From contig JBFWPF010000010.1 of NCBI GenBank assembly GCA_050250135.1, positions 780 through 64,779 on the forward strand: a stretch of DNA of 64,000 nt, read 5' to 3'. Source of the stretch: Parachlamydiales bacterium (GTDB taxonomy: Bacteria > Chlamydiota > Chlamydiia > Chlamydiales > JAFEGQ01). The first letter of the stretch is position 1. Every line of letters begins with the position of its first letter. Below, piece by piece: positions 20,546-48,699 of the stretch. Under the pieces are notes generated by a model. That model was not told where the DNA came from and made no database searches. It was given only the letters and a program-made list of their open reading frames with translations. The position numbers and the translations under genes were made by a program.

Positions 20546-20647
20546 CGCATAGCCGATAATCCTAAGCGCTACCCCACGATGGCTAAGCAGCTCTCCGACC
20601 AGCTGGATGATACATTTGAGAATCTGCTCGTTAGAAGCGCTCTTCAA

Positions 20648-20804
20648 CCCCTGATTGCGACCTATCGTCCGGGGGGCGTGGCAGATGGTGGTCAGATAGT
20701 GTACATCGTGACGAGGCCAGGTCTTTAGACCTGGGTGAGGAGGGATGTACACTAAATGGCCGCCAGCTGTCGATGCCGTCTAGACGATAGGTCGCAATCA
20801 GGGG
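20648..20804. repeat. 157-bp foldback MITE-like element, copy 1
   Basis: Terminal inverted repeats CCCCTGATTGCGACCTATCGTC... / ...GACGATAGGTCGCAATCAGGGG. Internal nested palindromes AGTGTACATC/GATGTACACT and CCAGGTCT-TT-AGACCTGG. Near-identical in length and sequence to 36516-36672. Confidence 0.85.
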
Positions 20805-20809
20805 TTTAA

Positions 20810-20850
20810 CCCCTGATTATGACCTATCGTCCAGAGGGCATCTGCATGGG
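20810..20850. repeat. Solo end (half copy) of the 157-bp MITE family
   Basis: CCCCTGATTATGACCTATCGTCCAGAGGGCATCTGCA matches the reverse complement of the right end of copy 2 (TGTAGATGCCCTCTGGGCGATAGGTCGCAATCAGGGG). Confidence 0.6.
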
Positions 20851-27690: not shown

Positions 27691-29322
27691 ATGCGGATCT
27701 ATGCTGCCCAGCTCAACCCCACCATCGGCGCCCTTAAGGGCAATACTCAGAAGATCCTCGCTGCGATCGACCGGGGACGGGAGCAGGGGGCCGACCTGAT
27801 CCTTCTCCCCGAGCTGGCCATCTCGGGCTACCCCCCCGAGGACCTCCTCCTCCTCGAGTCCTTTGTCCCTGCCTGCGAGGCGATGCTAGAGCCCATTATC
27901 GAGGCCTCCAAGGGGCTTGCGGTGGTAGTGGGTTTGCCCCGGCGGGCGACCAAGGGGGAGAAGCCCTTCCACAACAGTGCGGCCATCATAGAGGAGGGGA
28001 AGCTCCTTGGTTTTCAGGACAAAACCTGCCTCCCTACCTACGATGTCTTCGACGAGCGGCGCTACTTTGAGCCCTCCCCAAAAAACCAAGTCTGGAAACT
28101 CCGAGGGGAGAGGGTTGCGATCACCATCTGCGAAGATATCTGGGGATGGGAGGAGCCGATTGTGCTGGCCGACTACCGCCGCCACCCGGTCGAGGAGCTG
28201 GCCTCCGCTCGTCCTACCTTCCACCTCAACCTCTCCGCCTCGCCCTACAGCTTTGAGAAATTCCCGATGCGCCTCGAGGCCCTCCAACGGGCCTCCCAGC
28301 ACCTTAAGGTCCCCTCCCTCCTCTGCAACCAGGTCGGCGGCAACGACAGCCTGATATTCGATGGGCACACCTTCCTTATCGACCGGGAGGGGCGGGTGCT
28401 TGCCCGAGCCAAGGGCTTTGCGGAGGATAACCTCCTGATCGACACTCGCAAACTCCCCCCTCCCCTCGTCCTAGAAGAGAACCCTTATGGCGAGCTCTAC
28501 CGTGCCCTGGTGATGGGGGTACGCGATTACTTTGAGAAGAGCGGCTTTAAAACGGCCTGCCTCGGCCTCTCGGGGGGGATCGACTCGGCCCTTGTTGCCG
28601 CCATCGGCGCCGACGCCCTTGGCCCTCAGAACATCCTGGGGCTACTGATGCCCGGCCCCTACAATCCCCCCTCTTCCCTCGAGGATGCACAGCTGCTCGC
28701 CCAAAACCTCGGCATCAAAACCCTTACCCTGCCCATAGGGCCCCTCTACGAGACCTTTCTCACCACCCTCACCCCCCATTTTGAAGGGAAGGCCCCCGAC
28801 ACCACCGAGGAGAACCTCCAGGCGCGGATCCGGGGCATGCTCCTGATGGCGATCTCCAACAAGCATGGGCACATCGTCCTCAGCACTGGAAACAAGAGTG
28901 AGATGGCGACCGGCTATGCGACCCTTTATGGCGATATGTGTGGAGGGCTTGGTGTTCTCAGCGATGTTCCAAAGATGAAGGTCTACGCCCTCTGCAAACA
29001 CCTCAACCGGGAGGGGGAGCGGATCCCCCACAATATCCTGGTCAAGCCCCCGTCGGCCGAGCTTGCCGAGGGGCAGGTCGATGCCGATACCCTCCCCCCC
29101 TACTCGATCGTCGACCAGGTCCTCGAGGATTATGTCCAGCGCCACCTCTCTCCAGAAACGATTGCCGAGAGGCGCTCTCTCCCCTTTCCGATCGTGCTCG
29201 ACCTCGTCAAGCGGATCCACCGAAACGAGTACAAACGGCGGCAGGCTCCCCCCGGCCTTAGGGTCACCGAGAAGGCCTTTAGTGTCGGCCGCCGCTTCCC
29301 CATCGTCCAGAAATGGTCCTAA
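27691..29322 (+). CDS. nadE: Glutamine-dependent NAD+ synthetase (nitrilase domain + NAD synthase domain)
   Basis: 543 aa. N-terminal CN-hydrolase (LPELAISGYPPEDL, ICEDIW) and PP-loop LGLSGGIDSAL. Confidence 0.9.
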   Translation: MRIYAAQLNPTIGALKGNTQKILAAIDRGREQGADLILLPELAISGYPPEDLLLLESFVPACEAMLEPIIEASKGLAVVVGLPRRATKGEKPFHNSAAIIEEGKLLGFQDKTCLPTYDVFDERRYFEPSPKNQVWKLRGERVAITICEDIWGWEEPIVLADYRRHPVEELASARPTFHLNLSASPYSFEKFPMRLEALQRASQHLKVPSLLCNQVGGNDSLIFDGHTFLIDREGRVLARAKGFAEDNLLIDTRKLPPPLVLEENPYGELYRALVMGVRDYFEKSGFKTACLGLSGGIDSALVAAIGADALGPQNILGLLMPGPYNPPSSLEDAQLLAQNLGIKTLTLPIGPLYETFLTTLTPHFEGKAPDTTEENLQARIRGMLLMAISNKHGHIVLSTGNKSEMATGYATLYGDMCGGLGVLSDVPKMKVYALCKHLNREGERIPHNILVKPPSAELAEGQVDADTLPPYSIVDQVLEDYVQRHLSPETIAERRSLPFPIVLDLVKRIHRNEYKRRQAPPGLRVTEKAFSVGRRFPIVQKWS

Positions 29323-29435
29323 TTTCGACCCTATGGAGCGCTCATTTGGCTTGATTTTTGACCATACAGAGCGCCTATTTGCCTTGATTTTTAACCACCT
29401 TAACCTAAAAACAGCCTTGATTTTTAACCATATTT
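29308..29435. repeat. Array of ~4 degenerate tandem 33-34-bp repeats starting in the last codons of nadE
   Basis: Units: CAGAAATGGTCCTAATTTCGACCCTATGGAGCGCT / CATTTGGCTTGATTTTTGACCATACAGAGCGCCT / ATTTGCCTTGATTTTTAACCACCTTAACC... / ...AGCCTTGATTTTTAACCATATT. The first ~60 bp recur at 30921-30979. Confidence 0.8.
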
Positions 29436-29468
29436 TGCATAAGGTGATGAAAAACAGGGGATTGAATC

Positions 29469-30812
29469 GTGAAGCGCCTGATCCATGCCGATTTACGTAA
29501 GTGGAAAGGGAAGCCCAACCGTAAGCCTCTGCTTATCCGTGGCGCTAGACAGGTCGGAAAAACTCACGCAGTACGCACCCTAGCGGAGAGCTTTGAGGAC
29601 TTTGTGGAACTGAACCTGGAGAACGACCCTAAAGCCTGCACAGTCTTCGAGCCCGATCTAAAGGCTGATCGGATTCTCAGGGATTTAACCATCCACCTGA
29701 AGCGTCCCATCACGCCCGGAAAAACACTGCTCTTTATTGATGAAATTCAAGCGGCCCCCAAGGCTATTATTGCCCTCAGGTATCTCTATGAAGAGGTACC
29801 CGACCTGCATGTGATTGCTGCAGGATCGTTGCTGGATTTTGCGATTCAACAGGTCGGCGTCCCCGTTGGGCGGATAGAGTTCCTTTACATGTACCCCCTC
29901 TCCTTTGCAGAATTTCTCGTATCGATGGGCGCAAGTGGCCTATGCGGCCAAGTTCTAGAGCATCCAATCGACACTCCCATGTTCCCCCTGTTCCATGACC
30001 AACTGATTCGAATGCTCGGTGAATATCTGGTCATTGGTGGAATGCCAGAGGTGGTCAAAGGTTGGCGCGACACCCAAGATCCTGAACACTGCTTAACCAT
30101 TCAACATCGCATTCTTACCGCCTACCAGTATGATTTTCCCAAATATGCCAAGCAATTTCAGCTCAAGTATCTCGAGATTTTATTCCGCCAGCTACCGCAC
30201 TGGACTGGACAACGCTTCAAGTACTCCCAAATAGGCGAGGGTTATCGAAAACGGGAATTGGAGCCCTGCTTAGAGCTGCTTCGGACGGCTGGAATGGTTC
30301 ATCAGGTTATGCATACGGCCGGCCAAGGAATTCCTATTGGCTCTGATGTCAGATTTGATATCTTTAAGACCCTATTCCTAGATGTCGGCCTCACCCAAGC
30401 CCAGTTAGGCCTCGATCTAGCCGACTATTTTCTGAATCCCCAGGAAGCGCTTGTGAATAGCGGTGCCATTGCTGAAGCCTACGTAGGACAAGAACTGCTT
30501 GCCTATTCTCCCCCTTATAAAAAAAGTGATCTCTTTTACTGGGAAAGGTTGGTACGGTCCAGCGCAGCAGAGGTCGACTATCTCCACCAAGCGGGTCCGC
30601 ACATCCTACCCATCGAAGTGAAAGGCGGAAGAGGGAACACACTCCGATCACTCCACCGATTCCTCGAAACCCACCCCAAAACCCCCTACGGAGTCCGTTT
30701 TTCTACCCGCAACTACTCGAAGCATGACAACATCCACTCCTATCCCCTCTATGCAGTGATGCAATTCGCCAAATGGGATGGGCAGGAGGCTTGGGAGGCG
30801 CTCCTCAGCTAA
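29469..30812 (+). CDS. AAA+ ATPase with DUF4143-type C-terminal region carrying a PD-(D/E)xK-like motif (COG1373 family), paralogue 1
   Basis: 447 aa, GTG start. Walker A GARQVGKTH, Walker B LLFIDEIQ, C-terminal AEVDYL...ILPIEVKGG (D...ExK). Confidence 0.85.
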   Translation: MKRLIHADLRKWKGKPNRKPLLIRGARQVGKTHAVRTLAESFEDFVELNLENDPKACTVFEPDLKADRILRDLTIHLKRPITPGKTLLFIDEIQAAPKAIIALRYLYEEVPDLHVIAAGSLLDFAIQQVGVPVGRIEFLYMYPLSFAEFLVSMGASGLCGQVLEHPIDTPMFPLFHDQLIRMLGEYLVIGGMPEVVKGWRDTQDPEHCLTIQHRILTAYQYDFPKYAKQFQLKYLEILFRQLPHWTGQRFKYSQIGEGYRKRELEPCLELLRTAGMVHQVMHTAGQGIPIGSDVRFDIFKTLFLDVGLTQAQLGLDLADYFLNPQEALVNSGAIAEAYVGQELLAYSPPYKKSDLFYWERLVRSSAAEVDYLHQAGPHILPIEVKGGRGNTLRSLHRFLETHPKTPYGVRFSTRNYSKHDNIHSYPLYAVMQFAKWDGQEAWEALLS

Positions 30813-30885
30813 GTGGCAGAATTTCTTAGCTTAAACTTGAGGACGTCGCCAAAGCCAACGTCTTCCCAGCCACTACTTCCCCATG

Positions 30886-30979
30886 ACAAAAATGGTCGTG
30901 ATTTCGACCATCTAAGACATCAAAATGGTCGCTTTTTCGACCATATGGAGCATCCATTTGGTTTGATTTTCGACCACAG
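30886..30979. repeat. Array of 3 tandem 33-bp repeats, each with an ATGGTCG-N6-CGACCAT palindrome or its variant
   Basis: ATGGTCG-TGATTT-CGACCAT at 30892-30911 and ATGGTCG-CTTTTT-CGACCAT at 30925-30944 (33-bp period). The third unit is CCATTTGGTTTGATTTTCGACCAC. Confidence 0.85.
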
Positions 30980-31045
30980 ATTCTGCAATATGTTCATATT
31001 TAGAGAATTAGAAATATGGAGTGAGAAGGTATCGGAATGTCACGA

Positions 31046-31876
31046 TCAGCTGAGGACATCGGCGATATCAGAAACACCTAACTTGAGCATCAGGAGGCGG
31101 TCGAAGCCGACGGCGACGCCGCAGCAGTCGGGAAAGGGGCCAAGGGGCATCACCGTTTCGGGATAGACCTCCTTGCCTAGGGCCCCCCTCAGCTGGTTTT
31201 GCTCCAAAAGGCGCCGCTTGTGCTCTACCGGATCGGTCAGCTCATCATAACCATTCGCTAGCTCCATCCCCTGGAAAAAAAGCTCAAACCGCTCACTACC
31301 CCGCTCGCTTACCTTAGCCAGAGCGGCCTGCGAGGGGGGAAAATGGGTCACGATGTAAAAGGGCTCCCCTGATAGCTGCGGCTCAATTTTGGTCGCGAGG
31401 AGGTAGTTCTGCTGCTCTTCCGAAAGGGCGCCAGGGTCGATCCCCGCATGCCTCTGAAAGGCCTCCGAGTAGCTCATCACCTCGAGGGGGCGCTCTCCCA
31501 CAAACAGAGCGGCAAGGGCAGCGGTCTCCTCCCACATCTGCTGCAGGGAAAAGCCGAGGCGGTACCACTCGATCATCGCAAATTCGGGGCGGTGGCGCCT
31601 GCCCGACTCCCCATCTCGGAAGACATGGGAGAGCTGGTAGATGTCGCTAAGGCCCGCTTTTAAGAGGTTCTTCATCCCATATTCGGGCGAGGAGTGGAGG
31701 TACCACCGCTCCCCCATCACCTCGGCAGCAATCAGGTCGATATGGGCGTCGATGGAGGGGTCGGGTGAGAGGGCGGCGCAGTCGACCTCCATCACCCCCC
31801 GCTCATGGAAAAACTCCCGGACGCAGCGGAGCATCCGGGCCCGCTCCTTCAAATTACTTAGAGGAGCGGGAGACAT
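31046..31876 (-). CDS. epmA: Elongation factor P--(R)-beta-lysine ligase (EpmA/PoxA/GenX)
   Basis: Class II aaRS-like core. Aligns with E. coli EpmA from NLKERARMLRCVREFF (E. coli NLLKRAAIMAEIRRFF) to the C-terminal GVAVGFDRLLML. Start chosen at MSPAPL (31876); ATG 31912 is also possible. Sits directly downstream of efp. Confidence 0.85.
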   Translation of the reverse strand: MSPAPLSNLKERARMLRCVREFFHERGVMEVDCAALSPDPSIDAHIDLIAAEVMGERWYLHSSPEYGMKNLLKAGLSDIYQLSHVFRDGESGRRHRPEFAMIEWYRLGFSLQQMWEETAALAALFVGERPLEVMSYSEAFQRHAGIDPGALSEEQQNYLLATKIEPQLSGEPFYIVTHFPPSQAALAKVSERGSERFELFFQGMELANGYDELTDPVEHKRRLLEQNQLRGALGKEVYPETVMPLGPFPDCCGVAVGFDRLLMLKLGVSDIADVLS

Positions 31877-32426
31877 ACTCGCCAGTGCGGGTGTCGATCT
31901 TGACCACCTCATGCTGGTCGATAAAGATGGGCACCTGAACCTTAGCTCCCGTATCGGTAATGGCGGCCTTAAGGACCCGGCCCGACGCCGTATCCCCTTT
32001 GACCCCCGGCTCGGTCTCCACGATCTCCATATCGATGAAGGTAGGGGGGTTGACCAGCACTGGAGCCCCCTTGTAGGAGATCACCTCGTAGAGGAGATCC
32101 TCCTTAAGCCACTGCTCCGAATCGGCGATCACCGCATGGGGGACTGTGAGCTGCTCATAGGTCTGGTCATCCATAAAGACCGCATCCTGCCCATCCCGGT
32201 AGGAGAAGCGCATTTGAGCCTCAGCGACATCGGCTAGCTCGATCTTCTCACCTGACTTGTAGGTCCGCTCAATGACCCGTCCGGTTAGAAGCCCTTTCAG
32301 CTTAACCCGAGTGAAGGCCTGCCCCTTGCCCGGCTTGACAAAGTCGACCCCTACAATGACCCAGGGCTGTCCATCTACCTCGACCTTGAGCCCCGCCTTA
32401 AACTGGTTGGTTGCTATCTGCGCCAT
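31854..32426 (-). CDS. efp: Elongation factor P
   Basis: FVKPGKGQAFTRVKLK loop with the modifiable lysine, and C-terminal KIDTRTGEYVSR. Start at MAQIATNQF. Confidence 0.9.
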   Translation of the reverse strand: MAQIATNQFKAGLKVEVDGQPWVIVGVDFVKPGKGQAFTRVKLKGLLTGRVIERTYKSGEKIELADVAEAQMRFSYRDGQDAVFMDDQTYEQLTVPHAVIADSEQWLKEDLLYEVISYKGAPVLVNPPTFIDMEIVETEPGVKGDTASGRVLKAAITDTGAKVQVPIFIDQHEVVKIDTRTGEYVSRSSK

Positions 32427-32541
32427 CCCCATCCTCCGATTATAAGGGGGAGATCATACCCCCGATTATGACCTCTTGTAAAGAGACGATAGACCCCCAT
32501 CACGACTTGCCCCCATTAGGGCCCGTCGCTAAGATGGGACC

Positions 32542-33357
32542 ATGGATGCCCATAGCCCCGAAATTGCCGCGCATCAGGAGAAGATCGCCCGGGATACCCT
32601 CGAGCGCTACTCGGGCTCCCCGATCAACAAATTTCAAAATTACCTTATCTTAACTAACTTTGGCCGCTACGTCGATTACTTTGCCGATACGCGGGGCCTT
32701 GAGGTTTTCGAGGGGTCGATGTTCAAGGTGGCCCACAGCCCCGAAGAGGACATCAGTGTCCTCGACTTTAAGATTGGCTCCCCGGCGGCAGCCCTGGTTG
32801 TCGACGTTTGCGCCTTCCTCCCCTTCCAAGCGGTTCTCCTCCTCGGGATGTGTGCCGGCCTTCGCCGCCACTACCGGGTCGGCGATTACTTTGTCCCCAT
32901 CGCCGCTATTCGAGGTGATGGGACGAGCGACTTCTACTTTCCCCCTGAGGTTCCGGCCCTTGCCAACTTTGTGGTGCAGAAGGCGGTGACCGATGTCCTC
33001 CAGACCAAGGAGATCGAGTACCACATTGGGATCACCCACACGACCAACAAGCGGTTTTGGGAGTTCAACGACAAGTTCAAGGAGCGGCTGAAGGAGAACC
33101 GGGCCCAGGCCCTTGAGATGGAGTGCGCTACCCTCTTCCTCGCCAGCTACCGCCACAAGCTCCCCCTCGGCGCCCTCCTCCTCGTCTCCGATCTCCCCTT
33201 GGCGCGGGATGGGATCAAGACCAAGGAGAGCAGCAAGTTCGTCTTTGACACCTACATGGCCGATCATGTCGAGATGGGGGTAGAGATCCTCCATAGGACG
33301 AAGAGCATGAAGAAGCGGCATGTCAAGGGGATCCGCCGCGAAGCGATGGATGGGTGA
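32542..33357 (+). CDS. amn: AMP nucleosidase-like protein (PNP/UDP phosphorylase family, short form)
   Basis: 271 aa. GMCAGL, IRGDGTS and LEMECATLF motifs of the nucleoside phosphorylase-I fold. Layout is like the catalytic domain of AMP nucleosidase. Confidence 0.7.
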   Translation: MDAHSPEIAAHQEKIARDTLERYSGSPINKFQNYLILTNFGRYVDYFADTRGLEVFEGSMFKVAHSPEEDISVLDFKIGSPAAALVVDVCAFLPFQAVLLLGMCAGLRRHYRVGDYFVPIAAIRGDGTSDFYFPPEVPALANFVVQKAVTDVLQTKEIEYHIGITHTTNKRFWEFNDKFKERLKENRAQALEMECATLFLASYRHKLPLGALLLVSDLPLARDGIKTKESSKFVFDTYMADHVEMGVEILHRTKSMKKRHVKGIRREAMDG

Positions 33358-34097
33358 ACACCCTACTCTTCCTTATGGTGAGTCTCCATATCCTACCCGG
33401 CACTGGCCCCCGCACCCTCCTCCTCTTCCATGGCTATGGGGGGAGCCAAGAGATTGCCGACCAGATTCGCGCGGCCGATGTCACCGATGCTACCCTTGTT
33501 AGCTTCAACTTTCCCGACCACGACCTTACCGACTATGACCCCGAAAGGGCCACCTTTGGCACCCCAGGTGAGCTGATTCCTGCTCTGGAGGCCCTCACAC
33601 AGCTAATCGTGACCGAGGGCAGGCGCAATGTCGACCTCTACGGCTTTTCAGCAGGGGGCGGCGCCCTCATCAATCTGATCGCCCTGCTCAATAGCGACCG
33701 CTATCAGGTGGCCCACCGACAGGAGCTCCTCGAGGTGATCCAACAAGGTAGTATCTTGCTCGACGCTCCCTTCAAATCGATCGAAGAGATCATCGCCTTT
33801 CGGGGCCCATCGGAGGAGTTTTCCCTAATGGCGGAGCGGTATGCGCGTAACCGGATGAGGCCAATCGACTCCCTGGAGGGGTGGAAGGGGCTAAGATTAA
33901 ATGTGATTATCTATTTCGAGAGGCCCGATGAAGTCCTCTCCAACCGGGACGACTCCCTCTTTGTCGAGCGGCTCCGGCAGGTAAACAAAGACGGAACAAA
34001 CACGATCCTTTTCGGCACCACCGGTGGCCACAACGCCCTCCACCCTGCTCTCTGGAGCGCTTACCGTCAAGCGTCAAAATCTCTATCTCGTTCATAA
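33354..34097 (+). CDS. Alpha/beta-hydrolase fold protein
   Basis: 247 aa. LLLFHGYGG oxyanion region and nucleophile elbow GFSAG. 4-nt overlap with amn. Confidence 0.6.
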   Translation: MNTLLFLMVSLHILPGTGPRTLLLFHGYGGSQEIADQIRAADVTDATLVSFNFPDHDLTDYDPERATFGTPGELIPALEALTQLIVTEGRRNVDLYGFSAGGGALINLIALLNSDRYQVAHRQELLEVIQQGSILLDAPFKSIEEIIAFRGPSEEFSLMAERYARNRMRPIDSLEGWKGLRLNVIIYFERPDEVLSNRDDSLFVERLRQVNKDGTNTILFGTTGGHNALHPALWSAYRQASKSLSRS

Positions 34098-34177
34098 CCA
34101 ACCATTTTTGATTGACCAAAAGACGATCGATCGTAAAATGGTCGCGACCAAAATACGATCCATCGTAAAATGGTCGT
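34098..34177. repeat. Tandem 32-bp repeat x2 (29/32) plus a leading variant unit, ending 3 nt before the ATPase-2 start codon
   Basis: GACCAAAAGACGATCGATCGTAAAATGGTCGC (34114-34145) / GACCAAAATACGATCCATCGTAAAATGGTCGT (34146-34177), preceded by CCATTTTTGATTGACCA. Contains ATGGTCG|CGACCAA at 34137-34150. Confidence 0.85.
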
Positions 34178-34180
34178 AAG

Positions 34181-35389
34181 ATGAGAAGACGAGTCTATAA
34201 CGCTGCTATTGAGGCCCAGTTTGAGGAAGACCGGCAGATGCTCTTCCTAATGGGGCCACGTCAGGTAGGAAAGACGACAGCTAGTTTGCTTTCAGGTCAC
34301 GACGATGAGGACCTGTACTATTTCAATTGGGACGACCTAGAACAAAGAGCTCTATTAACAAAAGGGGCCTCTGCCATTGCTGAGGAGGTCGATCTCGAGG
34401 CGCTCAGAGAGCCCAAGCCTGTGATCATTTTTGATGAAGTTCATAAGGCACCCCATTGGAAAGCCCTTCTTAAGGGGTTTTTCGACCTATATGGAACGCT
34501 AGCCCATATCCTTGTGACCGGCAGTGCCCGCTTAGATGTCTACAAGAAAGGGGGAGATAGCTTGATGGGGCGCTATTTCCGTTACCGCCTTCACCCTTTC
34601 TCGGTTGCCGAACTTGTCAACCCTACACTGCCCAAAGGAGAAATTCGATCGCCAAAATCGCTCCCGAAGGCCGACTGGGAGCGTCTATTGACCTTTGGGG
34701 GATTCCCCGAACCCTATTTGAATGGGACGAGGCGCTTTTACAACCGATGGCGCACCATGCGCAATCACCAGGTCTTCCGCGAGGACTTGCGGGACCTCAG
34801 CCGGGTTCAAGAGCTTTCGCAGATTGAACTCTTAGCTGAACTGATGCGCCTGCAAGCGGGCTCTCTCACCAGCTATCACTCGTGGGCAACTCACGTCCGT
34901 ATCTCCTCCGATACCGTGCGCCGTTGGGTTGAGCTCCTACAATCGGTCTTCTATTGCTTTGCGATCCGCCCTTGGTCAAAAAACGTCGGGCGCTCCCTGC
35001 TGAAGGAACCAAAGTTCTATCTGTATGACTGGTCACTGGTCGATGACGAGGGGGCCCGCTTTGAGAATCTCGTAGCCTCTCACCTCCTAAAAGCGGTCCA
35101 TTTCTGGAGTGACTACGGCTTTGGAGAGTATGGCCTCTTCTATATCCGCACTAAGGAGAAGCGGGAGGTCGATTTTTGCGTCACAAAAGAGGGGAAACCT
35201 TGGATACTCGTCGAGGCCAAGGTGGGAAAGGAGAGGCTCTCTCCGCAGCTGGGCTATTTTCAGGAGAAGTTGGGGTGCCCCTATGCCTTTCAGGTGGTGC
35301 GCGATCTCCCCTATGTCAACAAGGACTGCTTTGCACAAGATCGCCCCCTCATTGTCCCCGCCAGAACATTCCTCTCGCAGCTGATTTAA
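34181..35389 (+). CDS. AAA+ ATPase with DUF4143-type C-terminal PD-(D/E)xK-like motif (COG1373 family), paralogue 2
   Basis: 402 aa. Walker A GPRQVGKTT, Walker B VIIFDEVH, C-terminal REVDFCVTKEGKPWILVEAKVG. Roughly half the residues are identical to paralogue 3. Confidence 0.85.
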   Translation: MRRRVYNAAIEAQFEEDRQMLFLMGPRQVGKTTASLLSGHDDEDLYYFNWDDLEQRALLTKGASAIAEEVDLEALREPKPVIIFDEVHKAPHWKALLKGFFDLYGTLAHILVTGSARLDVYKKGGDSLMGRYFRYRLHPFSVAELVNPTLPKGEIRSPKSLPKADWERLLTFGGFPEPYLNGTRRFYNRWRTMRNHQVFREDLRDLSRVQELSQIELLAELMRLQAGSLTSYHSWATHVRISSDTVRRWVELLQSVFYCFAIRPWSKNVGRSLLKEPKFYLYDWSLVDDEGARFENLVASHLLKAVHFWSDYGFGEYGLFYIRTKEKREVDFCVTKEGKPWILVEAKVGKERLSPQLGYFQEKLGCPYAFQVVRDLPYVNKDCFAQDRPLIVPARTFLSQLI

Positions 35390-35496
35390 CCTCTGATTAC
35401 ACGCTCCCATACACCTTGATCTACAGGTCTGGTCCCTTGCGTGTTATCGACCGGTTGTTAATAATGACTTTCTTAAACCAATGGAGGAATGTCGTT

Positions 35497-36432
35497 ATGG
35501 AGATTCTACCCTCCTCGTCTGAGTCGAGTGTACCCTACCGCACGCTACCGCTCGGCTACCCGGTCTTTAGCGTTGCCTTCAGTCCAGATGGGCTGATCCT
35601 CGCATCGGGAAGCACTGACCACAAGGTCCATCTATGGGACACCATAACATTGGAGGAAAAAGGCTCCCCACTCAGTGGGCACACCGGGACCGTCTGGTGC
35701 CTGGCCTATCACCCGCAAGGAACTCTTCTGGCCTCAGCAAGCGTGGACAAGACGATCCGCCTATGGGATATGGCAAGCAAAAAGGTGACGTTTGTCCTTG
35801 AGGGACACACAAGCTATGTCTACTGTGCGGCCTTCAGCTCCAATGGACAACTCCTCGCCTCTGCAAGTGAGGATAGGACGGTCCGCCTATGGGATACCTC
35901 CACCGGCAAGGAGTTGCCTTTCTCTCCGCTTGAAACGCATGAGAGCCCGGCCTGGAGCGTTGCGTGGGCCCACAACGGGAAGACCCTGGCCTCGGGAACC
36001 GGGATGGGAAAAATCCACCTCTGGGAGGCCGCAACAGGGAAAAAGAAAGGGGCCCCTGTGGAGGGACATACGGCCCCTGTCCAGAGCCTTACGTTCTATT
36101 CGGATGACCATACCCTCGTCTCGGGATCTGGCGACACCACCGTTCGTTTTTGGGATCCCTCCGCAGGGAAGGAGATCCCTCCTCCCATAACCTGGCATAC
36201 ATCTGGGGTCAACAGCATCGCCCTAGGCCATAGCGAAAAGATTCTAGCCTCAGGCAGTAACTATCCGACCATTGGCCTTTGGGACGCTACCACGAGAAAA
36301 GGCAAAAGGACCCTAAGCGGCCACACAGGTAGTGTTCAGTGCGTTGCTTTGAATCCTACAAGCACGACCCTCGCGTCGGCAAGCCTCGACGAAACGATCC
36401 GCCTCTGGGACATCAGCCACCTGCTAATTTAG
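35497..36432 (+). CDS. WD40-repeat protein
   Basis: ~311 aa with about seven repeats of ...LASGS.D.T(V/I)(R/H)LWD.... GGAGG lies 9 nt upstream of ATG 35497 (ATG 35464 is an alternative). The ORF-track start at 35176 overlaps the previous gene and is rejected. Confidence 0.85.
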   Translation: MEILPSSSESSVPYRTLPLGYPVFSVAFSPDGLILASGSTDHKVHLWDTITLEEKGSPLSGHTGTVWCLAYHPQGTLLASASVDKTIRLWDMASKKVTFVLEGHTSYVYCAAFSSNGQLLASASEDRTVRLWDTSTGKELPFSPLETHESPAWSVAWAHNGKTLASGTGMGKIHLWEAATGKKKGAPVEGHTAPVQSLTFYSDDHTLVSGSGDTTVRFWDPSAGKEIPPPITWHTSGVNSIALGHSEKILASGSNYPTIGLWDATTRKGKRTLSGHTGSVQCVALNPTSTTLASASLDETIRLWDISHLLI

Positions 36433-36515
36433 AGCTGTTACAATCTTATCCTGGGGGTGGCTAGTTATTTCCCTTCTTGCCCGACCCTGAGTATCCGTAC
36501 CCGTTAGACCTTTTA

Positions 36516-36672
36516 CCCCTGATTGTGACCTATCGTCCAGGGGGCGCGGCAGATGGTAGTCAGATAGCGCACATCGTGACGAGGCCAGGTCTTTAGACCT
36601 GGGTGAGGAGGGATGTCCGCTAGATGGCCACCAGCTGTAGATGCCCTCTGGGCGATAGGTCGCAATCAGGGG
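36516..36672. repeat. 157-bp foldback MITE-like element, copy 2
   Basis: CCCCTGATTGTGACCTATCGTCC...GGCGATAGGTCGCAATCAGGGG. Same length and internal CCAGGTCTTTAGACCTGG hairpin as 20648-20804. Confidence 0.85.
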
Positions 36673-36685
36673 TTTTATCCTGGGT

Positions 36686-36796
36686 CTAGGAGATCGCCTT
36701 CGTGACGAGCTCTTCGAGGTGGGCAGGGCCCTCGATTTTGGGGAGCATGAGCTCGCGATGGCTCTCCCTCTTCTCAATGGAGAGGGTGAGCTTCTC
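36686..36796 (-). pseudogene. Displaced duplicate of the last ~37 codons of mfd
   Basis: The minus strand reads GEKLTLSIEKRESHRELMLPKIEGPAHLEELVTKAIS*. The intact mfd ends LEKSTLSIEKRESHRKLMLPKIEGPAHLEELVTKAIS*. The central ~62 nt have a single mismatch. There is no upstream mfd sequence. Confidence 0.85.
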
Positions 36797-36908
36797 GCCC
36801 CTGATTGTCCCTGCCAGGTACGTGTTCACGAGGGGGAGTCCTCTCACTAGGGGCGGGGGCTACCCACGTGAATATGTACCCAGCCAGGGCCTTCTTGTCT
36901 CAGTTGGT

Positions 36909-38120
36909 CTAGACCAGTTGAGAGAGAAAGGAGCGGGCGGAGACGATGCGAGGGGTCGGATCAAGAAAGCAGGTCTGGTGACTATAAGGCTGATCAAAGA
37001 CAACCTGGAGGGCATATTGGGGTCTAAGCTGCATTTGAAAGTGCGCAAGTGAGGGGCTGATCTGCCGCGAATTGCCTAGCTTTACCTCGACTAGCATCCA
37101 GGGCTTTCCATTGTACGTGACCAAGAAGTCAACCTCTCGCTTCTCCTTGTCCCGGACATAGTGAAGGGTAAATACCCCCATCCCACAGTCGGTCCAAAAA
37201 TCGGTCGCCTTAAGAAGGAAACAGGCCACCATATTTTCGGCCCTCGCTCCAGGATCACTGAGAAGTGACCAATCGGTCAGGTAGTACTTGGGCTCTTTGA
37301 GAAGAGATCGGGCAACACTATGCGCATAGGGCCTTACCTCAAAACAAACGTAGAGTGAAATGAGGTGTTTGAGCCACTGCATGACAGTGGTATGGCTGAT
37401 CTGTACCTTACGAGCTAGCGAGGCATAGCTGGTCAAAGAACCGACCCCAGCCCGCAACATCTGAATGAGCAACTCCATCTGGGAAATTTCCCGAATTCGG
37501 GTTAGGTCACGCAGGTCCTCATGGAGCAGTTGATCCCACCGGTGGAGCGACCACTGGGTATGGTAGGCCTCTTCCCCTCGTAGGAGGGGATCGGGAAATC
37601 CCCCAAATCGCCAGAGGGCCTCGTAGAGGGAGTCTTCGATTTCACAAGGGGCGGGCCGAACGGCAATGGGTGTTACCTCGGGCTCCACAAGCTCTCTAAT
37701 GGTGAAGGGATGAACGTGGTGGCGAAAGTACCGCCCCATCAAGCTGTCGCCCCCTTTCTGGTAGACATCGAGGCGGGCGCCTCCCGTCACCAAAATATGG
37801 GCTAGGTTAGGATAGAGATCATATAACCCCTTCAAGAAGAGCTTCCACGAGGGATAACGGTGGATCTCATCAAAAATAAGGAGAGGGACCGGCTCTTCCA
37901 TCAGGCCAAGCTTAGCCTCCTGCCCTAGCGCTCTCCCCCCCTGCTGGATCTTGTCACGGTCGTTAGGATCATCCCAGGTATAATAGAGGACTCGAGGCCA
38001 GTCCTCCCCTACGTTGACACCTAGCGTGGTCTTCCCCACCTGCCGAGGCCCCATGACAAAGAGCATCTGCCGGTTTCTCTGGAAGTGGCCGGTAAAGACC
38101 TGGTGGTAAAAGCGGCGCAT
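36909..38120 (-). CDS. AAA+ ATPase with DUF4143-type C-terminal PD-(D/E)xK-like motif (COG1373 family), paralogue 3
   Basis: 403 aa from ATG 38120 (AAGGAG lies 7 nt upstream; the ORF-track TTG at 38141 is less likely). Walker A GPRQVGKTT, Walker B LLIFDEIH, REVDFLVTYNGKPWMLVEVKLG. The stop codon lies inside the palindrome TGGTCTAGACCA. Confidence 0.85.
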   Translation of the reverse strand: MRRFYHQVFTGHFQRNRQMLFVMGPRQVGKTTLGVNVGEDWPRVLYYTWDDPNDRDKIQQGGRALGQEAKLGLMEEPVPLLIFDEIHRYPSWKLFLKGLYDLYPNLAHILVTGGARLDVYQKGGDSLMGRYFRHHVHPFTIRELVEPEVTPIAVRPAPCEIEDSLYEALWRFGGFPDPLLRGEEAYHTQWSLHRWDQLLHEDLRDLTRIREISQMELLIQMLRAGVGSLTSYASLARKVQISHTTVMQWLKHLISLYVCFEVRPYAHSVARSLLKEPKYYLTDWSLLSDPGARAENMVACFLLKATDFWTDCGMGVFTLHYVRDKEKREVDFLVTYNGKPWMLVEVKLGNSRQISPSLAHFQMQLRPQYALQVVFDQPYSHQTCFLDPTPRIVSARSFLSQLV

Positions 38121-38154
38121 AACGGGCTCCTTCACCCACAAGTGTACCAGAAAT

Positions 38155-38316
38155 CTTCATTTGGTCGGATTTTGCCCCAAATGCCGAAATTCCGGGGATT
38201 TTGTCGGGTAATTTCTGACCAAATGAAGGTTTTTTCAGGGTTGATAATCAGCAACTTAATGAATTTTTTTTCCTTTTCCTGACTTTTTGAGTGCCTTGTT
38301 TCATTTGGTCGGATTT
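38155..38316. repeat. Structured spacer between ATPase 3 and mfd: 17-bp direct repeats plus a 12-bp inverted repeat
   Basis: TTCATTTGGTCGGATTT at 38156-38172 and 38300-38316. CTTCATTTGGTC (38155-38166) is inverted as GACCAAATGAAG (38217-38228). Confidence 0.85.
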
Positions 38317-38318
38317 CT

Positions 38319-41300
38319 CTAGGAAATGGCTTTGGTCACCAGCTCTTCGAGGTGGGCAGGGCCCTCGATTTTGGGGAGCATGAGCTTGCGATGGCTCTCC
38401 CTCTTCTCTATGGAAAGGGTCGACTTTTCCAGCTTTAGGGCGGTGATCTGGAAGCGAGAGGCAACGGTGCGGATCCGCATCAGGTGGTAAAACCACAGGG
38501 CCTCCTCTGGGGGCGTGCCGAAACGGTCCTTGAGTTCATCAAAGAGGTCGTCAACATCGGCTTCGGTAGGCGCATCCCCAAAACGGCTGTAGAACTCGAG
38601 GCGGAGGGTCGATTCGGGGATGTAATGCTCGGGAAGGTAGGCGCGCTGAGGGAATTCAAGCTTGACCTCGGTGAGAGTGTGGGGCGTTTTCCCTTGGAGC
38701 GACTGGACCATTCTTTTGAGCATCTTGCAGTAGAGGTTGAAGCCGATGGCGGAAACATGGCCCGACTGCTCCGTGCCCAGGATGGAGCCGCCGCCGCGGA
38801 TCTCAAGGTCGCGCATGGCGACTTTAAAGCCGCCGCCATGAGGGCCTAGCTGCTCGAGGACATCGAGACGCTCCTTTGAGACGGCGCTGGGAGGGCGCTT
38901 TTTGGAGGTGAGGAAGTAGGCATAGGCCCTGCGGTTCCAACGGCCCACTCGGCCGCGCATCTGGTAGAGGTCGGCAAGGCCATGCCGATCGGCCCGCTCA
39001 ACGATAATGGTGTTGGCGTTGGGGACATCAAGGCCGTTTTCAACGAGGGTAGTGGCAACGAGGATCTGAATCTTACCGGTGCGGAAGGCATGGAAGATGG
39101 TGTCGAGCTCATCGCCCGACATCTGCCCATGGGCAACCCCGATGCGGGCTTGCGGGAGGTCTTGCCGGAGGCGGTCGGCCACGCCGTAGATGGTCTCAAC
39201 GCGGTTGTGGATAACGAGCGCCTGGCCATCACGGGCAAGCTCGCGGAGGAGGGCGTTTTTGGTTTTCTCCGCATCCTCCTCGCCAACGTGAGTCTTGATG
39301 GGGAGGCGGTCTTGGGGAGGGGTGGCGATGATCGAGAGGTCGCGACCCCCCATGAGAGCGAGGTAGAGGGTGCGGGGTATGGGCGTTGCCGAGAGGGTGA
39401 GGCAGTCGACCCCTGCTCTAAAAGCCCGGATCTTCTCTTTGACCCGAACGCCAAACCGCTGCTCCTCGTCGACGATAACGAGGCCAAGGTTGGAGAAGTG
39501 GACGTCGCTGCTGATGATGCGGTGGGTGCCGATCAGGATGTCGAGGGAGCCTTCAGCAAGGTGCTTGAGGGTGGCCTTTTGTTCCTTGGGGGTGCGGAAG
39601 CGGGAGAGGACACCGATCCGAACGGGAAAGTTCTCCATCCGCTGGGAGAAGTTATCGAAGTGCTGCATGGCGAGGACGGTGGTGGGGACGAGTATCGCCA
39701 CCTGCTTGCCTCCGTCGATGACCGCCTTAAAGGCGGCCCGCATCGCCACCTCGGTCTTGCCATAGCCGACATCGCCGCAGACGAGGCGGTCCATCGGTTT
39801 GGGCTGCTCCATATCCTGCTTAACGTCGCGGATCGCCTTGAGCTGGTCGGCCGTCTCGACGTAGGGGAATTCCGATTCGAAGAGGAGGGTCTCCTCGCCA
39901 TCGGGTGGGAAGGCAAAGCCGCCGGCAATCTCCCGCTCGGCATGGGCCTTGAGCATCTCTTGAGCGTATTTTCGGATCGCCTCTTCAGTCTGAGCGCGGA
40001 CCCGGGCCCACTTGCCGCTCCCCAGGGTGTGGAGGACCGGTTTCTCCTCTTTGCCGCCAACATATTTGTTGACCAGGTAGGACTGCGCGAGGGGGACAAA
40101 GAGTTTTCCTTTAGAGGCATACTCGATGGCCAGGTACTCGGCGGTGTTCCCGTCGGTGTCATCCTTTTTGACAATGCCGAGGTAGCGGCCGATGCCGTGG
40201 TGGAAGTGGACGACGAGATCGCCGTCGGTGTAGTCGACCATCTCCTGGGGGGCGCTGCTGTAGACCGCCCGCTTTTGCTCGCGGCGGACCTTGTAGTGGT
40301 GGGTCAGCTCTGTGATAGGAAGGAGGGTGAGGCCATCCAAGGTAAAACCGCTTGAGAGGTACCCCTCGTGAACAGCGGCGACCTTGGTAATCCCCATCTG
40401 CTCGAGGAGGGCGCGGAGCCGCTTTTCTTCGCGGGAATTTTCGCAGATGAGATGGAGCTCGGTATTGTCGGGAATCCCCTCCGAGAGGGTGTGGAAGGGG
40501 TTTTTCCACCGGTAGGCCGAGAGGCGCTTGTCGAAGAGGGGGAAGGTGAGCGGATGGGGGGAGGCGCCCGAAGAGTAGTAGTCGACGCCGGGAGGAACTT
40601 CGATGTCACCGAGGGCGTCGATCGGAGTCGCGGGCCAGTAGAGTTTCTGGTAAGGGGCGGCTTTGTCCATCCAGTCGGCGAAGGCCTTGCCTCCGAGGCC
40701 GAGCGCGACGAGGCGGTCTTCAAGAGCGAGGAGGTCATCGAAGGCGATGCAGGTGTTCTCACCGAGGTAGTCGAAGAGGGTGGCGCTCTTGTCGCCGGTA
40801 AACTCATCGACTAGCGTAAGAGTGAGCTCCTTGACCTCGCCAGTTGAGCGCTGACTCCCCGGATCGAAGGGGCGGATCTTCTCTATCTCGTCTCCAAAGA
40901 ACTCGATCCGGTAGGGGGCAAGGCTGCTTAAGGGGAAGAGGTCAACGATCCCGCCGCGCACGGCAAACTCCCCCTTATCGGCGACAACAGGGCGGCGGAC
41001 AAAGCCGGCTCCCCCTAGCTCTTCGATGAGCCACTCGGGAGGGTATTCTTGCCCCACAGTGAGGTGGAGATCCCCCTTCTGGAACTGGTCGGGGGGAATC
41101 ATGGGTTGGAGGGCCGCCTGGACCGGAGCGAGGAGGATCTGAGGGGTCTTGGCCGAAAGGAGGACCTTGAGGACCGAGTAGCGATCCCCGACCACATCGG
41201 GGCTGGGGGCGATCCCCTCAGAAGGGAGGTTCTCCCAAGCGGGAAGCTCGTGGACATTTTTTTGAAAGTAAAGGAGATCCTCATAGAGGCGCCCCTCCCG

Positions 41301-47852: not shown

Positions 47853-48022
47853 TAACGCCTTTTGCCGAGCTTTCCACAGGCGATGGAGCCAAGATTGTGG
47901 TGATCCATCGGGCTCCGCCTACCTGGGACAAGGTCGGGCAGCTCCAGGCTCTCTAGGGGCCTTAAGCCCCCATCAAGGGAAAATGAGTAACAAATTCATT
48001 TAGAGAAACTTATGCACATCGC

Positions 48023-48072: not shown

Positions 48073-48699
48073 ATGAAGCCCCGAGACCGGCTCTACCAGG
48101 TTGCTTACCGCCAGCAGGGCTACTTTACTGCCCGTCAAGCGGCCCTAGCAGGCTATGCTGACAGCGCTCCCGCTTACCACATTGCCGCTGGCAACTGGAT
48201 CCGTGAAGATCGGGGCATCTACCGCCTCGCCCATTTTCCCAACCATCCCGATAGTGACGCCATGGTCTGCTGGCTCTGGACCTCCAACCGTGAGGGCCGA
48301 CCTCTTGGTGTCTTGTCCCATCAGAGCGCACTAGATCTGCATGACCTGTGCGATATTAATCCACGCAAATGGCACATGACTGTTCCAAAGGGCTTTCGCA
48401 GAGCAGTCATACCTGGAACCTTGGTTCTTCATAAGGAAAGCTTGGGCGATGAAGATATCACGAGTTATTCTGGCCTACCCATCACCACCCTTTTCCGCAC
48501 CCTTTATGATCTAATTTGGGAACAATCGGTCGCTCCAGAACAACTCGTCATGGCCATTGATACTGCTCTGAAAAGGGGCCTCCTAGACAAAAAAACCCTT
48601 GCAAAGTTGCGTAACGCGCTCCATCCTAACTCCAAGTTTATCGATTTCCTGCTGGAGAGCTTGGAACATGGAGATCAAGCACTACAAGAGGCCTTGTGA
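48073..48699 (+). CDS. abiEi: AbiEi-family antitoxin / transcriptional regulator (type IV TA)
   Basis: 208 aa. N-terminal GYFTARQAALAGY...AAGNWIREDRGIYRLA winged-helix region typical of AbiEi_4 proteins. Overlaps the partner gene by 32 nt. Confidence 0.8.
   Translation: MKPRDRLYQVAYRQQGYFTARQAALAGYADSAPAYHIAAGNWIREDRGIYRLAHFPNHPDSDAMVCWLWTSNREGRPLGVLSHQSALDLHDLCDINPRKWHMTVPKGFRRAVIPGTLVLHKESLGDEDITSYSGLPITTLFRTLYDLIWEQSVAPEQLVMAIDTALKRGLLDKKTLAKLRNALHPNSKFIDFLLESLEHGDQALQEAL

Follow-up and report, generated by a model that had tools for sequence, protein, structure and literature searches.

We analyzed a 64,000-nucleotide stretch of Parachlamydiales bacterium DNA (metagenome-assembled genome, assembly GCA_050250135.1, contig JBFWPF010000010.1, positions 780 to 64,779 of the forward strand), hereafter the window, in which short repeat arrays accompany three genes for ATPase-nuclease proteins of the PDC-S01/COG1373 family. 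Positions are counted from the first letter of the window. The gene order between 27.7 and 41.5 kb is nadE, ATPase 1, the convergent epmA and efp, a nucleoside phosphorylase-family gene, a weakly matching alpha/beta-hydrolase gene, ATPase 2, a WD40 protein, ATPase 3 on the minus strand, and mfd. The arrays are specific to the ATPase genes, and their position and spacing are kept across phyla. They have two architectures: type I (ATPase 1) consists of 3–4 direct units with a 33-bp period, and type II (ATPase 2) of two 30-bp palindromes 32 bp apart. The genes and arrays of the window are the following.

29311 to 29442, plus strand: array A, four 33-bp type I units (starts 29311, 29344, 29377, and 29410) directly upstream of ATPase 1
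29469 to 30812, plus strand: ATPase 1, 447 aa, AAA_14 and DUF4143 domains, PDC-S01 type I
30890 to 30976, plus strand: array B, three 33-bp type I units (30890, 30923, and 30956) downstream of ATPase 1, the first two being perfect palindromes
30990 to 31028, plus strand: putative gene stub of 13 codons, MFIFRELEIWSEK, with its ATG at 30990, 27 nt past the last TTG core of array B
34112 to 34180, plus strand: array C, putative type II operator/promoter, with unit 1 at 34114–34143, a GC junction, and unit 2 at 34146–34175
34181 to 35389, plus strand: ATPase 2, 402 aa, AAA_14 and DUF4143 domains, PDC-S01 type II
36909 to 38120, minus strand: ATPase 3, 403 aa, PDC-S01 type II, 100% identical to protein P0001
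38151 to 38232, minus strand: array D, proximal part, with site CCGACCAAATGAAG at 38156–38172 beside the promoter and an inverted copy at 38217–38228
38300 to 38316, minus strand: array D, distal part, a 17-mer identical to 38156–38172 and located 144 bp further upstream

All three proteins have an N-terminal AAA_14 P-loop domain followed by DUF4143 (Pfam, E = 1e-23 to 1e-25 for both domains). The PADLOC hidden Markov models of PDC-S01 also match all three, with E = 9e-136 for ATPase 1, 5e-46 for ATPase 2, and 1e-45 for ATPase 3; NCBIfam gave no family match. By these matches, the proteins are members of PDC-S01/COG1373. ATPase 2 and ATPase 3 share 52% identity, ATPase 1 is ~20% identical to either, and homologues of ATPase 1 reach 56% identity at best, in Dependentiae, Legionellaceae, and Parachlamydiales. 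The true start of ATPase 3 is ATG 38120, not TTG 38141. PDC-S01, an ATPase fused to a PD-(D/E)XK domain, is very abundant and has frequently been transferred between domains of life (PMC12988326; PMC3424549), and DUF4143 is catalogued as PD-(D/E)XK (PMC3424549). PDC-S01/COG1373 is the fourth most common prokaryotic defence candidate, with ~39,000 loci in one survey; validation of its anti-phage activity is pending (PMC12988326). Its defence role is treated here as that of an unvalidated candidate. The searchable literature on DUF4143/COG1373/PDC-S01 covers the protein and its abundance, with no functional or regulatory study; for PDC-S01, it mentions neither repeat arrays upstream of the gene nor leaderless promoters, a winged helix, or duplications at the flanks.

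The AlphaFold2 model of ATPase 2 (59 sequences) has a mean predicted local distance difference test score of 90.5. It comprises an AAA+ core (residues 1–146), a helical lid (163–206), and a C-terminal PD-(D/E)XK domain (290–373) with an alpha-beta-beta-beta-alpha-beta core. D331, E345, and K347 are invariant among the 59 type II sequences, and the D..ExK motif is kept in all three window proteins. Between the lid and the nuclease, residues 212–281 form helices 212–224, 232–239, and 243–255 and strands 259–264 and 278–281. From this order of helices and strands, the segment is predicted to be a winged helix. This agrees with an earlier note on this DNA, made from the letters alone, which expected a DNA-binding module in COG1373/DUF4143 proteins; helix 3 of the predicted winged helix also appears to co-vary with the repeat motif, as described below. 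The best PDB fold matches of the model are the AAA+ proteins RuvB, RFC, ORC/Cdc6, and MuB, all of them distant, and no sequence-level PDB relative was found.

The earlier note had described one shared family of 32–34-bp repeats with ATGGTCG/CGACCAT cores at all three ATPase loci. All the listed instances exist, although three coordinates were shifted by 1 bp. The perfect palindromes ATGGTCG-N6-CGACCAT are located at 30892–30911 and 30925–30944, 33 bp apart, and a copy with two mismatches at 29313–29332. The spacer-less ATGGTCG/CGACCAA lies at 34138–34151 (ATGGTCG at 34138–34144) and not at 34137–34150, and the further half-site lies at 34170–34176 and not at 34169–34175. CATTTGG cores were found at 29343, 30955, 38158, and 38302 (plus strand) and at 38219 (minus strand), with an additional, previously unlisted one at 38177 (minus strand). 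The palindrome TGGTCTAGACCA at the ATPase 3 stop codon is also present, at 36905–36916 rather than 36906–36917, but it does not belong to the family: it consists of the codons for the conserved C-terminus QLV* (CAA CTG GTC TAG) and four chance bases. CAA CTG GTC TAG is identical in homologue L167, where no palindrome follows. The motif reported at 10958–11011 is a coincidence. The region 10953–11000 is a tandem repeat with a 24-bp period (2 copies, 91% identical) in the coding 3' end of a 957-aa DUF6119 open reading frame; this repeat contains CGACCGAAAATC and is unrelated to the arrays.

The repeats are clearly non-random. The octamer WWWTGGTC occurs 17 times on both strands of the window, for a Markov-shuffle expectation of 10.5 ± 3.3, and 11 of the 17 copies fall into four patches totalling ~400 bp (29311; 30890, 30923, and 30939; 34114, 34136, 34146, and 34168; 38159, 38217, and 38303). 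Repeat finding recovered a 54-nt family with 33-bp spacing in arrays A and B, and both repeat finding and Tandem Repeats Finder recovered array C as 2 × 32 bp with 93–94% identity. The two architectures, which take the place of the single family that had been proposed, share only the WWWTGGTC/GACCA half-site. The type I position weight matrix (PWM) matches the window only at 29346, 29379, 29412, and 30958, plus two weak sites at 48018 and 3193, which were rejected as arrays because they are AT-rich promoter-like sequence. The match at 48018 lies ~32 bp upstream of a gene for an AbiEi-type antitoxin/regulator (48073–48699).

Array A scores 18.7, 16.2, and 23.0 bits with the type I PWM at 29346, 29379, and 29412, and its first unit overlaps the nadE stop codon (29320–29322). 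Array B scores 14.8 bits at 30958, and its units B2–B3 are 81% identical to units A1–A2 over 54 nt. Although array B lies downstream of ATPase 1, the ATG of the 13-codon stub follows its last core at a distance like that in the closest homologues (25–28 nt from the last unit to the ATG in L002, L003, and L007), and MFIFRELEIWSEK resembles the family N-termini (RELEKWKSE, RELEKWGKS in L025 and L028). The stub frame runs into the 3' end of the convergent epmA at 31046. Because of this spacing and these N-terminus-like codons, array B is best read as the orphan operator/promoter, with the 5' stub, of a second ATPase gene of type I that is now deleted.

The NadE protein ends in K-W-S-stop, in line with the consensus Q-K/R/G-W-V/S of 120 homologues, and an operator half-site falls on the stop region of nadE, AAATGGTCCTAA (29311–29322). 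K-W-S-stop would also be encoded by unit B1, AAATGGTCGTGA (30890–30901). Since the nadE end and unit B1 both spell these residues, the insertion junction of ATPase 1 may lie in this microhomology of 8 bp. Within ATPase 1, a minus-strand sequence at 29732–29755 that is the reverse complement of the codons for Walker B (F-I-D-E-I-Q, e.g., CTTGAATTTCATCAATAAAGAGCA) scores 7.7 bits with the type I PWM; scores of ≥10 bits were obtained at +200 to +300 in 23 of 79 type I loci. This match is probably a compositional coincidence, though a consistent one across loci.

Array C consists of two 30-bp palindromes of the form GACCAAAA(G/T)ACGATNNATCGTAAAATGGTC, and the gap to ATG 34181 is 5 nt. The −35-like TTGACC (34112–34117) is followed after 16 nt by TAAAAT. 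With a score of 68 against the type II model of 69 loci and an exact 32-bp spacing, array C is a canonical member of its type. In array D, the proximal site and its inverted copy have 27-nt arms that are 81% complementary, and the distal site adjoins the mfd stop codon and the cassette junction. The closest ATPase 3 homologues, L165 and L166, have the same layout with GACCATTTG-type half-sites: two proximal GACCATTTG sites are 32 bp apart, and a distal one is located ~110–120 bp upstream.

The type I set was obtained by a scan of one genome per GTDB species and comprises 80 loci with homologues of ATPase 1 at 37–56% identity, from Dependentiae, Legionellaceae, Parachlamydiales, Bacteroidota, Desulfobacterota, Verrucomicrobiota, and others. 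Most of these loci carry 2–4 direct repeats right before the start codon, with the core CCTTGATTTTTGACCAWA in nearer relatives. In the 160 bp upstream of the gene, autocorrelation was strongest at a period of 33 bp for 44 of the 79 loci examined and at 32 bp for 9 more. A rerun gave a best period of 32/33 bp in 53/78 proximal segments, compared with 4/71, 2/67, and 4/66 control segments at additional upstream offsets of 400, 800, and 1200 bp. A scan with the type I PWM, trained on these sites, likewise placed the motif at these genes: 117 plus-strand matches lie ≤200 bp before the start, over a background of ~1–2 matches per 100-bp bin in the remaining 508 kb. Of the 57 distances between neighbouring matches, 41 are 33 bp and 8 are 32 bp.

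The type II set, also of 80 loci, was obtained by a metagenome scan with the ATPase 2/3 alignment. The best upstream period was 32/33 bp in 39 of 78 loci; in the control segments of the period test, both types taken together, this period was found in 2–7 of 52–71. The type II model was tested on 82 upstream regions (78 loci and the two type II genes of the window, near-duplicates counted), and tandem 30-bp imperfect palindromes at exactly 32 bp were present in 69 of them. The unit consensus is GACYA-W4-ACGAT-NN-ATCGT-W4-TRGTC. The junction between the units commonly reads TTGACY, and unit 2 ends 16 nt later in TAAAAT or TATAAT, so unit 2 would be the core promoter. The gap between unit 2 and the ATG is bimodal, with 0–9 nt in 39 loci (mode 2) and 24–48 nt in ~25 loci. 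In the short-gap loci, the A of the ATG lies 7 nt after the −10 hexamer, and the mRNA would therefore be leaderless. Several of the long-gap loci have an evident Shine-Dalgarno sequence.

The flanking genes vary between loci and the hosts come from many phyla; the ATPase is the only constant companion of the sites. The viral contigs scanned contained neither double type I units nor type II junction patterns, and the single 16-mer CCTTGATTTTTGACCA gave 52 matches. Single copies of CCTTGATTTTTGACCA are taken as chance occurrences because none of the 52 adjoins an ATPase homologue. The closest ATPase 1 homologues, L002–L013 (49–56% identity), are spread over Dependentiae/Babeliales, Legionellaceae, and Parachlamydiales, which are protist-associated lineages, and this suggests that the type I cassette and its operator motif are exchanged within the protist-associated niche. 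A tRNA gene ~100–200 bp upstream of the ATPase start was seen by eye in L013 and with Rfam in L047, which would fit island-like insertion.

The motif differs by clade while the 32/33-bp spacing stays, also in distant plasmid homologues from cultured organisms:

Criblamydia sequanensis plasmid: motif TTTATCC, spacing 32 and 32 bp
Glaesserella parasuis plasmid: motif TTGAAAA, spacing 32 and 33 bp
Bacteroides fragilis plasmid: motif GTGCGGA, spacing 66 bp

In type II, the following pairs of helix 3 sequence and operator were found:

helix 3 DTIRR: operator centre ACGAT
helix 3 PTLQ/TR: operator centre AACAT
helix 3 ENTIRS: operator centre CCGCAG
helix 3 HTT: GACCATTTG half-sites

Among 288 variable columns of the type II alignment, the highest normalised mutual information with the operator was obtained for residue 244, at the N-terminus of helix 3. 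The winged helix holds 20% of the variable columns and 9 of the 20 top ones. In type I (33 loci), four of the six top columns (259, 262, 270, and 287) fall in residues ~245–295 of ATPase 1, which by alignment we take to be helix 3 and the wing. The co-variation of the motif with the predicted recognition helix is suggestive, as these tests ignore phylogeny.

Taken together, we consider it fairly probable that the arrays are cognate operators bound by the ATPase encoded next to them, which would thereby repress its own gene. The main argument is that the ATPase is the sole protein always found with the sites, though neighbours, phyla, and promoter types differ, and is therefore the best candidate for the binding protein. 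The operator arrays proposed in the earlier note for the adjacent ATPases are thus supported by arrays that travel with the gene across phyla, by their position at the promoter, by their 32–33-bp spacing, by the dyad symmetry found in part of them, and by the apparent change of their sequence along with the predicted recognition helix. Each gene would form a self-contained unit of a promoter-operator array and an AAA+/winged-helix/PD-(D/E)XK protein. The winged helix would read a half-site with a conserved GACCA/TGGTC part and a clade-specific part, and protomers would fill two to four sites three helical turns apart (32 or 33 bp). A spacing of exactly three turns would put these sites on one DNA face. 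The equation of ~33 bp with three helical turns, also made in that note, accords with the spacing of 32–33 bp kept in the homologues; the dyad symmetry it described applies to the chlamydial/Dependentiae clade and to type II. Because the sites cover the −35/−10 region, their occupancy would block RNA polymerase, and in type II the last site ends 0–5 nt before the leaderless ATG. The nuclease would in this way be held at a low, self-buffered level.

Several points weigh against this interpretation. That the sites serve repression, and not activation or another use, is assumed from their position only. About 15–30% of the homologue loci are without a detectable array under these models. The last type I unit lies at varying distances from the start codon (19–70 nt and beyond), and a sigma-70 consensus scan of arrays A and B gave no convincing promoter. 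The region upstream of ATPase 3 is irregular and scores −13 with the type II model. Moreover, the enrichment in the co-variation tests is modest and confounded by phylogeny, and the type I part, with 33 loci, is weakly informative.

The sites could instead be bound by the ATPase-nuclease mainly as a platform for assembly, loading, or recombination in the mobility of a single-gene cassette (homing-like or by integration/excision), with regulation being secondary. We regard this as unlikely, though less so than the other alternatives. The PD-(D/E)XK motif (D331, E345, and K347) is intact, the native nadE 3' end coincides with an operator half-site, and at two genes of the window, ATPase 1 and ATPase 3, as well as in L114, the array adjoins the left junction. 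In addition, the ~1.5-kb ATPase 3 cassette is bracketed by two copies of the mfd 3' end, a direct repeat of 112 nt with 88% identity:

36685 to 36796, minus strand: displaced mfd duplicate, the last 36 codons and stop codon of mfd
38318 to 38429, minus strand: in-frame 3' end of the functional mfd gene (Mfd/TRCF domains), the other copy of the repeat

Such bracketing is recurrent. Direct repeats of 19–297 bp (77–100% identity), in several loci at the 3' ends of neighbouring genes, bracket 21 of 134 distinct cassettes (~16%), among them L021, L062, L081, L100, L114, L129, L142, L152, L155, and L161; inverted matches bracket 3 of 134, and direct repeats bracket 2 of 50 control pseudo-cassettes. 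The repeat extends over the 3' end region of an adjacent open frame, without disrupting that frame, in L129, L062, L081, L021, and L155. The DNA between the copies measures 1.4–2.4 kb and holds one gene; a recombinase is absent from the cassette. These duplications look like a recurrent insertion signature. Several short cases of 100% identity could be assembly artefacts, but those of 86–97% identity cannot.

The distribution of the arrays themselves argues against a primary role in mobility. In 79 homologue loci, no phased array was found within ±3 kb elsewhere than upstream of the gene, and the only downstream array of the window, array B, is explained by the gene stub. That the arrays flank the cassette was considered and rejected, since array B would belong to the deleted second gene and the homologue arrays are upstream only. 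The junctions of 14 bracketed cassettes revealed no motif in common, a flanking duplication is absent from ~84% of the loci tested, and the sites overlap promoter hexamers and the leaderless start as operators do. The proposal in the earlier note that the repeats are recombination or cleavage sites defining the cassettes was accordingly abandoned, the visible boundaries being duplicated 3' ends of host genes. A bolder version, in which PDC-S01 is an autonomous mobile cassette whose protein would be both its own repressor and the enzyme that inserts it at host-gene 3' ends, seems similarly improbable to us. Insertions would then leave 20–300-bp duplications of the target gene end while the host gene stays intact, and, if true, PDC-S01 would be a new kind of selfish element instead of, or besides, a defence gene. 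The nearest NadE homologue to that of the window is ~62% identical, and the collections therefore contain no close relative of this genome.

A separate palindromic element of ~160 bp lies at 36515–36673 and recurs at 20647–20807, with a partial copy at 20805–20843. Its two copies are 91% identical and have 31-nt terminal inverted repeats (ACCCCTGATTGYGACCTATCGTCC...), and it looks like a miniature inverted-repeat transposable element. In a second public assembly, GCA_050174135.1 (locus L083), the sequence departs from that of the window precisely at this element and leads into an AbiEii gene. The region 35497–36432, which separates ATPase 2 from the ATPase 3 cassette, encodes a 311-aa protein consisting of WD40 repeats only; eukaryote-like repeat proteins such as WD40-only ones have been reported in amoeba-associated bacteria.

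We consider it quite improbable that the repeats are promoter architecture or host-factor sites, such as reiterated −35 or UP-like AT-rich elements, and not sites of the ATPase. The units do hold TTGATT/TTGACC-like hexamers and AT-rich tracts, and the weak PWM matches at 48018 and 3193 lie upstream of two unrelated genes. However, the motif varies by clade, and Bacteroidota, Chlamydiota, Pseudomonadota, and others differ in promoter type and would have no host factor in common. Exact 32/33-bp phasing and dyad symmetry are not promoter properties, and the motif appears to follow the predicted recognition helix of the protein.

That the repeats act as RNA, in the form of 5'-leader hairpins or a small RNA, is very improbable. 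The units can fold; 30925–30944, for example, was called terminator-like on the minus strand, and a microRNA-like match below threshold was obtained for the inverted pair at ATPase 3. However, Rfam contained no relevant family (searches of the window region, at E ≤ 1, and of 20 homologue loci yielded a chance microRNA match and tRNAs only), most type I units are direct repeats that form no stems, the predicted transcription start of the short-gap type II loci lies at or after the array end, and the type II palindromes (~60% complementary) have about equal numbers of G:T and A:C mismatches (112 versus 104) and hence no RNA-hairpin signature, since a hairpin in the RNA of one strand should favour G:U.

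If the self-operator interpretation is right, it would provide the first concrete molecular property of the family, namely that its members are sequence-specific DNA-binding ATPase-nucleases that probably repress their own genes. The arrays would be ready-made cognate DNA substrates for biochemistry and structural work, and the fixed 32/33-bp spacing, together with the free divergence of the sequence, suggests a fixed oligomer geometry on DNA. It would also call for caution in defence surveys, as the abundance of the family may partly reflect selfish, self-regulated, mobile cassettes.

Among known systems, C-protein/C-box elements (C.PvuII, C.AhdI, and C.Esp1396I) rely on a small Xre-type helix-turn-helix controller encoded with a restriction-modification pair. 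Type II resembles them in its two adjacent dyad-symmetric operators over the promoter of the regulator's own gene. By analogy, the resemblance may extend to leaderless transcripts (predicted here), to an autoregulated, nuclease-encoding, horizontally mobile unit, and to an operator that co-diverges with its regulator. Unlike in C-box systems, there is neither an Xre-type controller nor a separate regulator gene, and the AAA+/nuclease itself would act through its internal winged helix; HTH_3 had no match in the single-gene cassettes, each of which encodes one ~400-aa protein. Type I also departs from the layout of two palindromes, as it has 3–4 direct units at 33 bp.

Plasmid iterons (pPS10 RepA, F RepE, and R6K pi) are repeats of ~17–22 bp in an origin with an AT-rich unwinding element and DnaA boxes, and the Rep initiators that bind them are winged-helix proteins that autoregulate their own gene. 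Type I, with its 3–4 units at 33 bp, is similar in that helically phased direct repeats adjoin the gene of a predicted winged-helix protein. In contrast to iterons, the repeat unit here is 32–33 bp, the neighbours are chromosomal housekeeping genes (nadE, epmA, efp, and mfd), the protein is of the AAA_14/DUF4143 type, with an AAA+ core and a nuclease, and not of the Rep family, and the arrays occur in ~160 unrelated chromosomal contexts. The earlier note's iterons, in the sense of replication, were not borne out: nothing origin-like was seen in the housekeeping-gene context of the window arrays, where no explicit search for DnaA boxes or an unwinding element was made.

Archaeal Orc1/Cdc6 with its origin recognition boxes and DnaA with the boxes of the dnaA promoter are AAA+ ATPases with a C-terminal DNA-binding fold, encoded beside their cognate sites. 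The PDC-S01 genes resemble both as AAA+ ATPase genes beside multiple candidate cognate sites. They differ from Orc1/Cdc6 in that the fold match is distant (E about 1e-5 to 1e-6, template modelling score about 0.25–0.3), the protein has an extra PD-(D/E)XK domain, and no origin context was seen. AbiEi of the abiE operons is a separate small winged-helix antitoxin that represses its own promoter via two inverted repeats. Common to both are a winged-helix protein of a defence module (predicted here) and paired repeats in its own promoter; AbiEi has neither the ATPase/nuclease fusion nor the 32/33-bp array. The arrays thus lack the defining features of the C-box, iteron/Rep, and Orc1/Cdc6–DnaA systems, which are functionally their closest analogues. 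What is new here, we infer, is a set of self-operator arrays for an AAA+/nuclease fusion, with fixed three-turn phasing.

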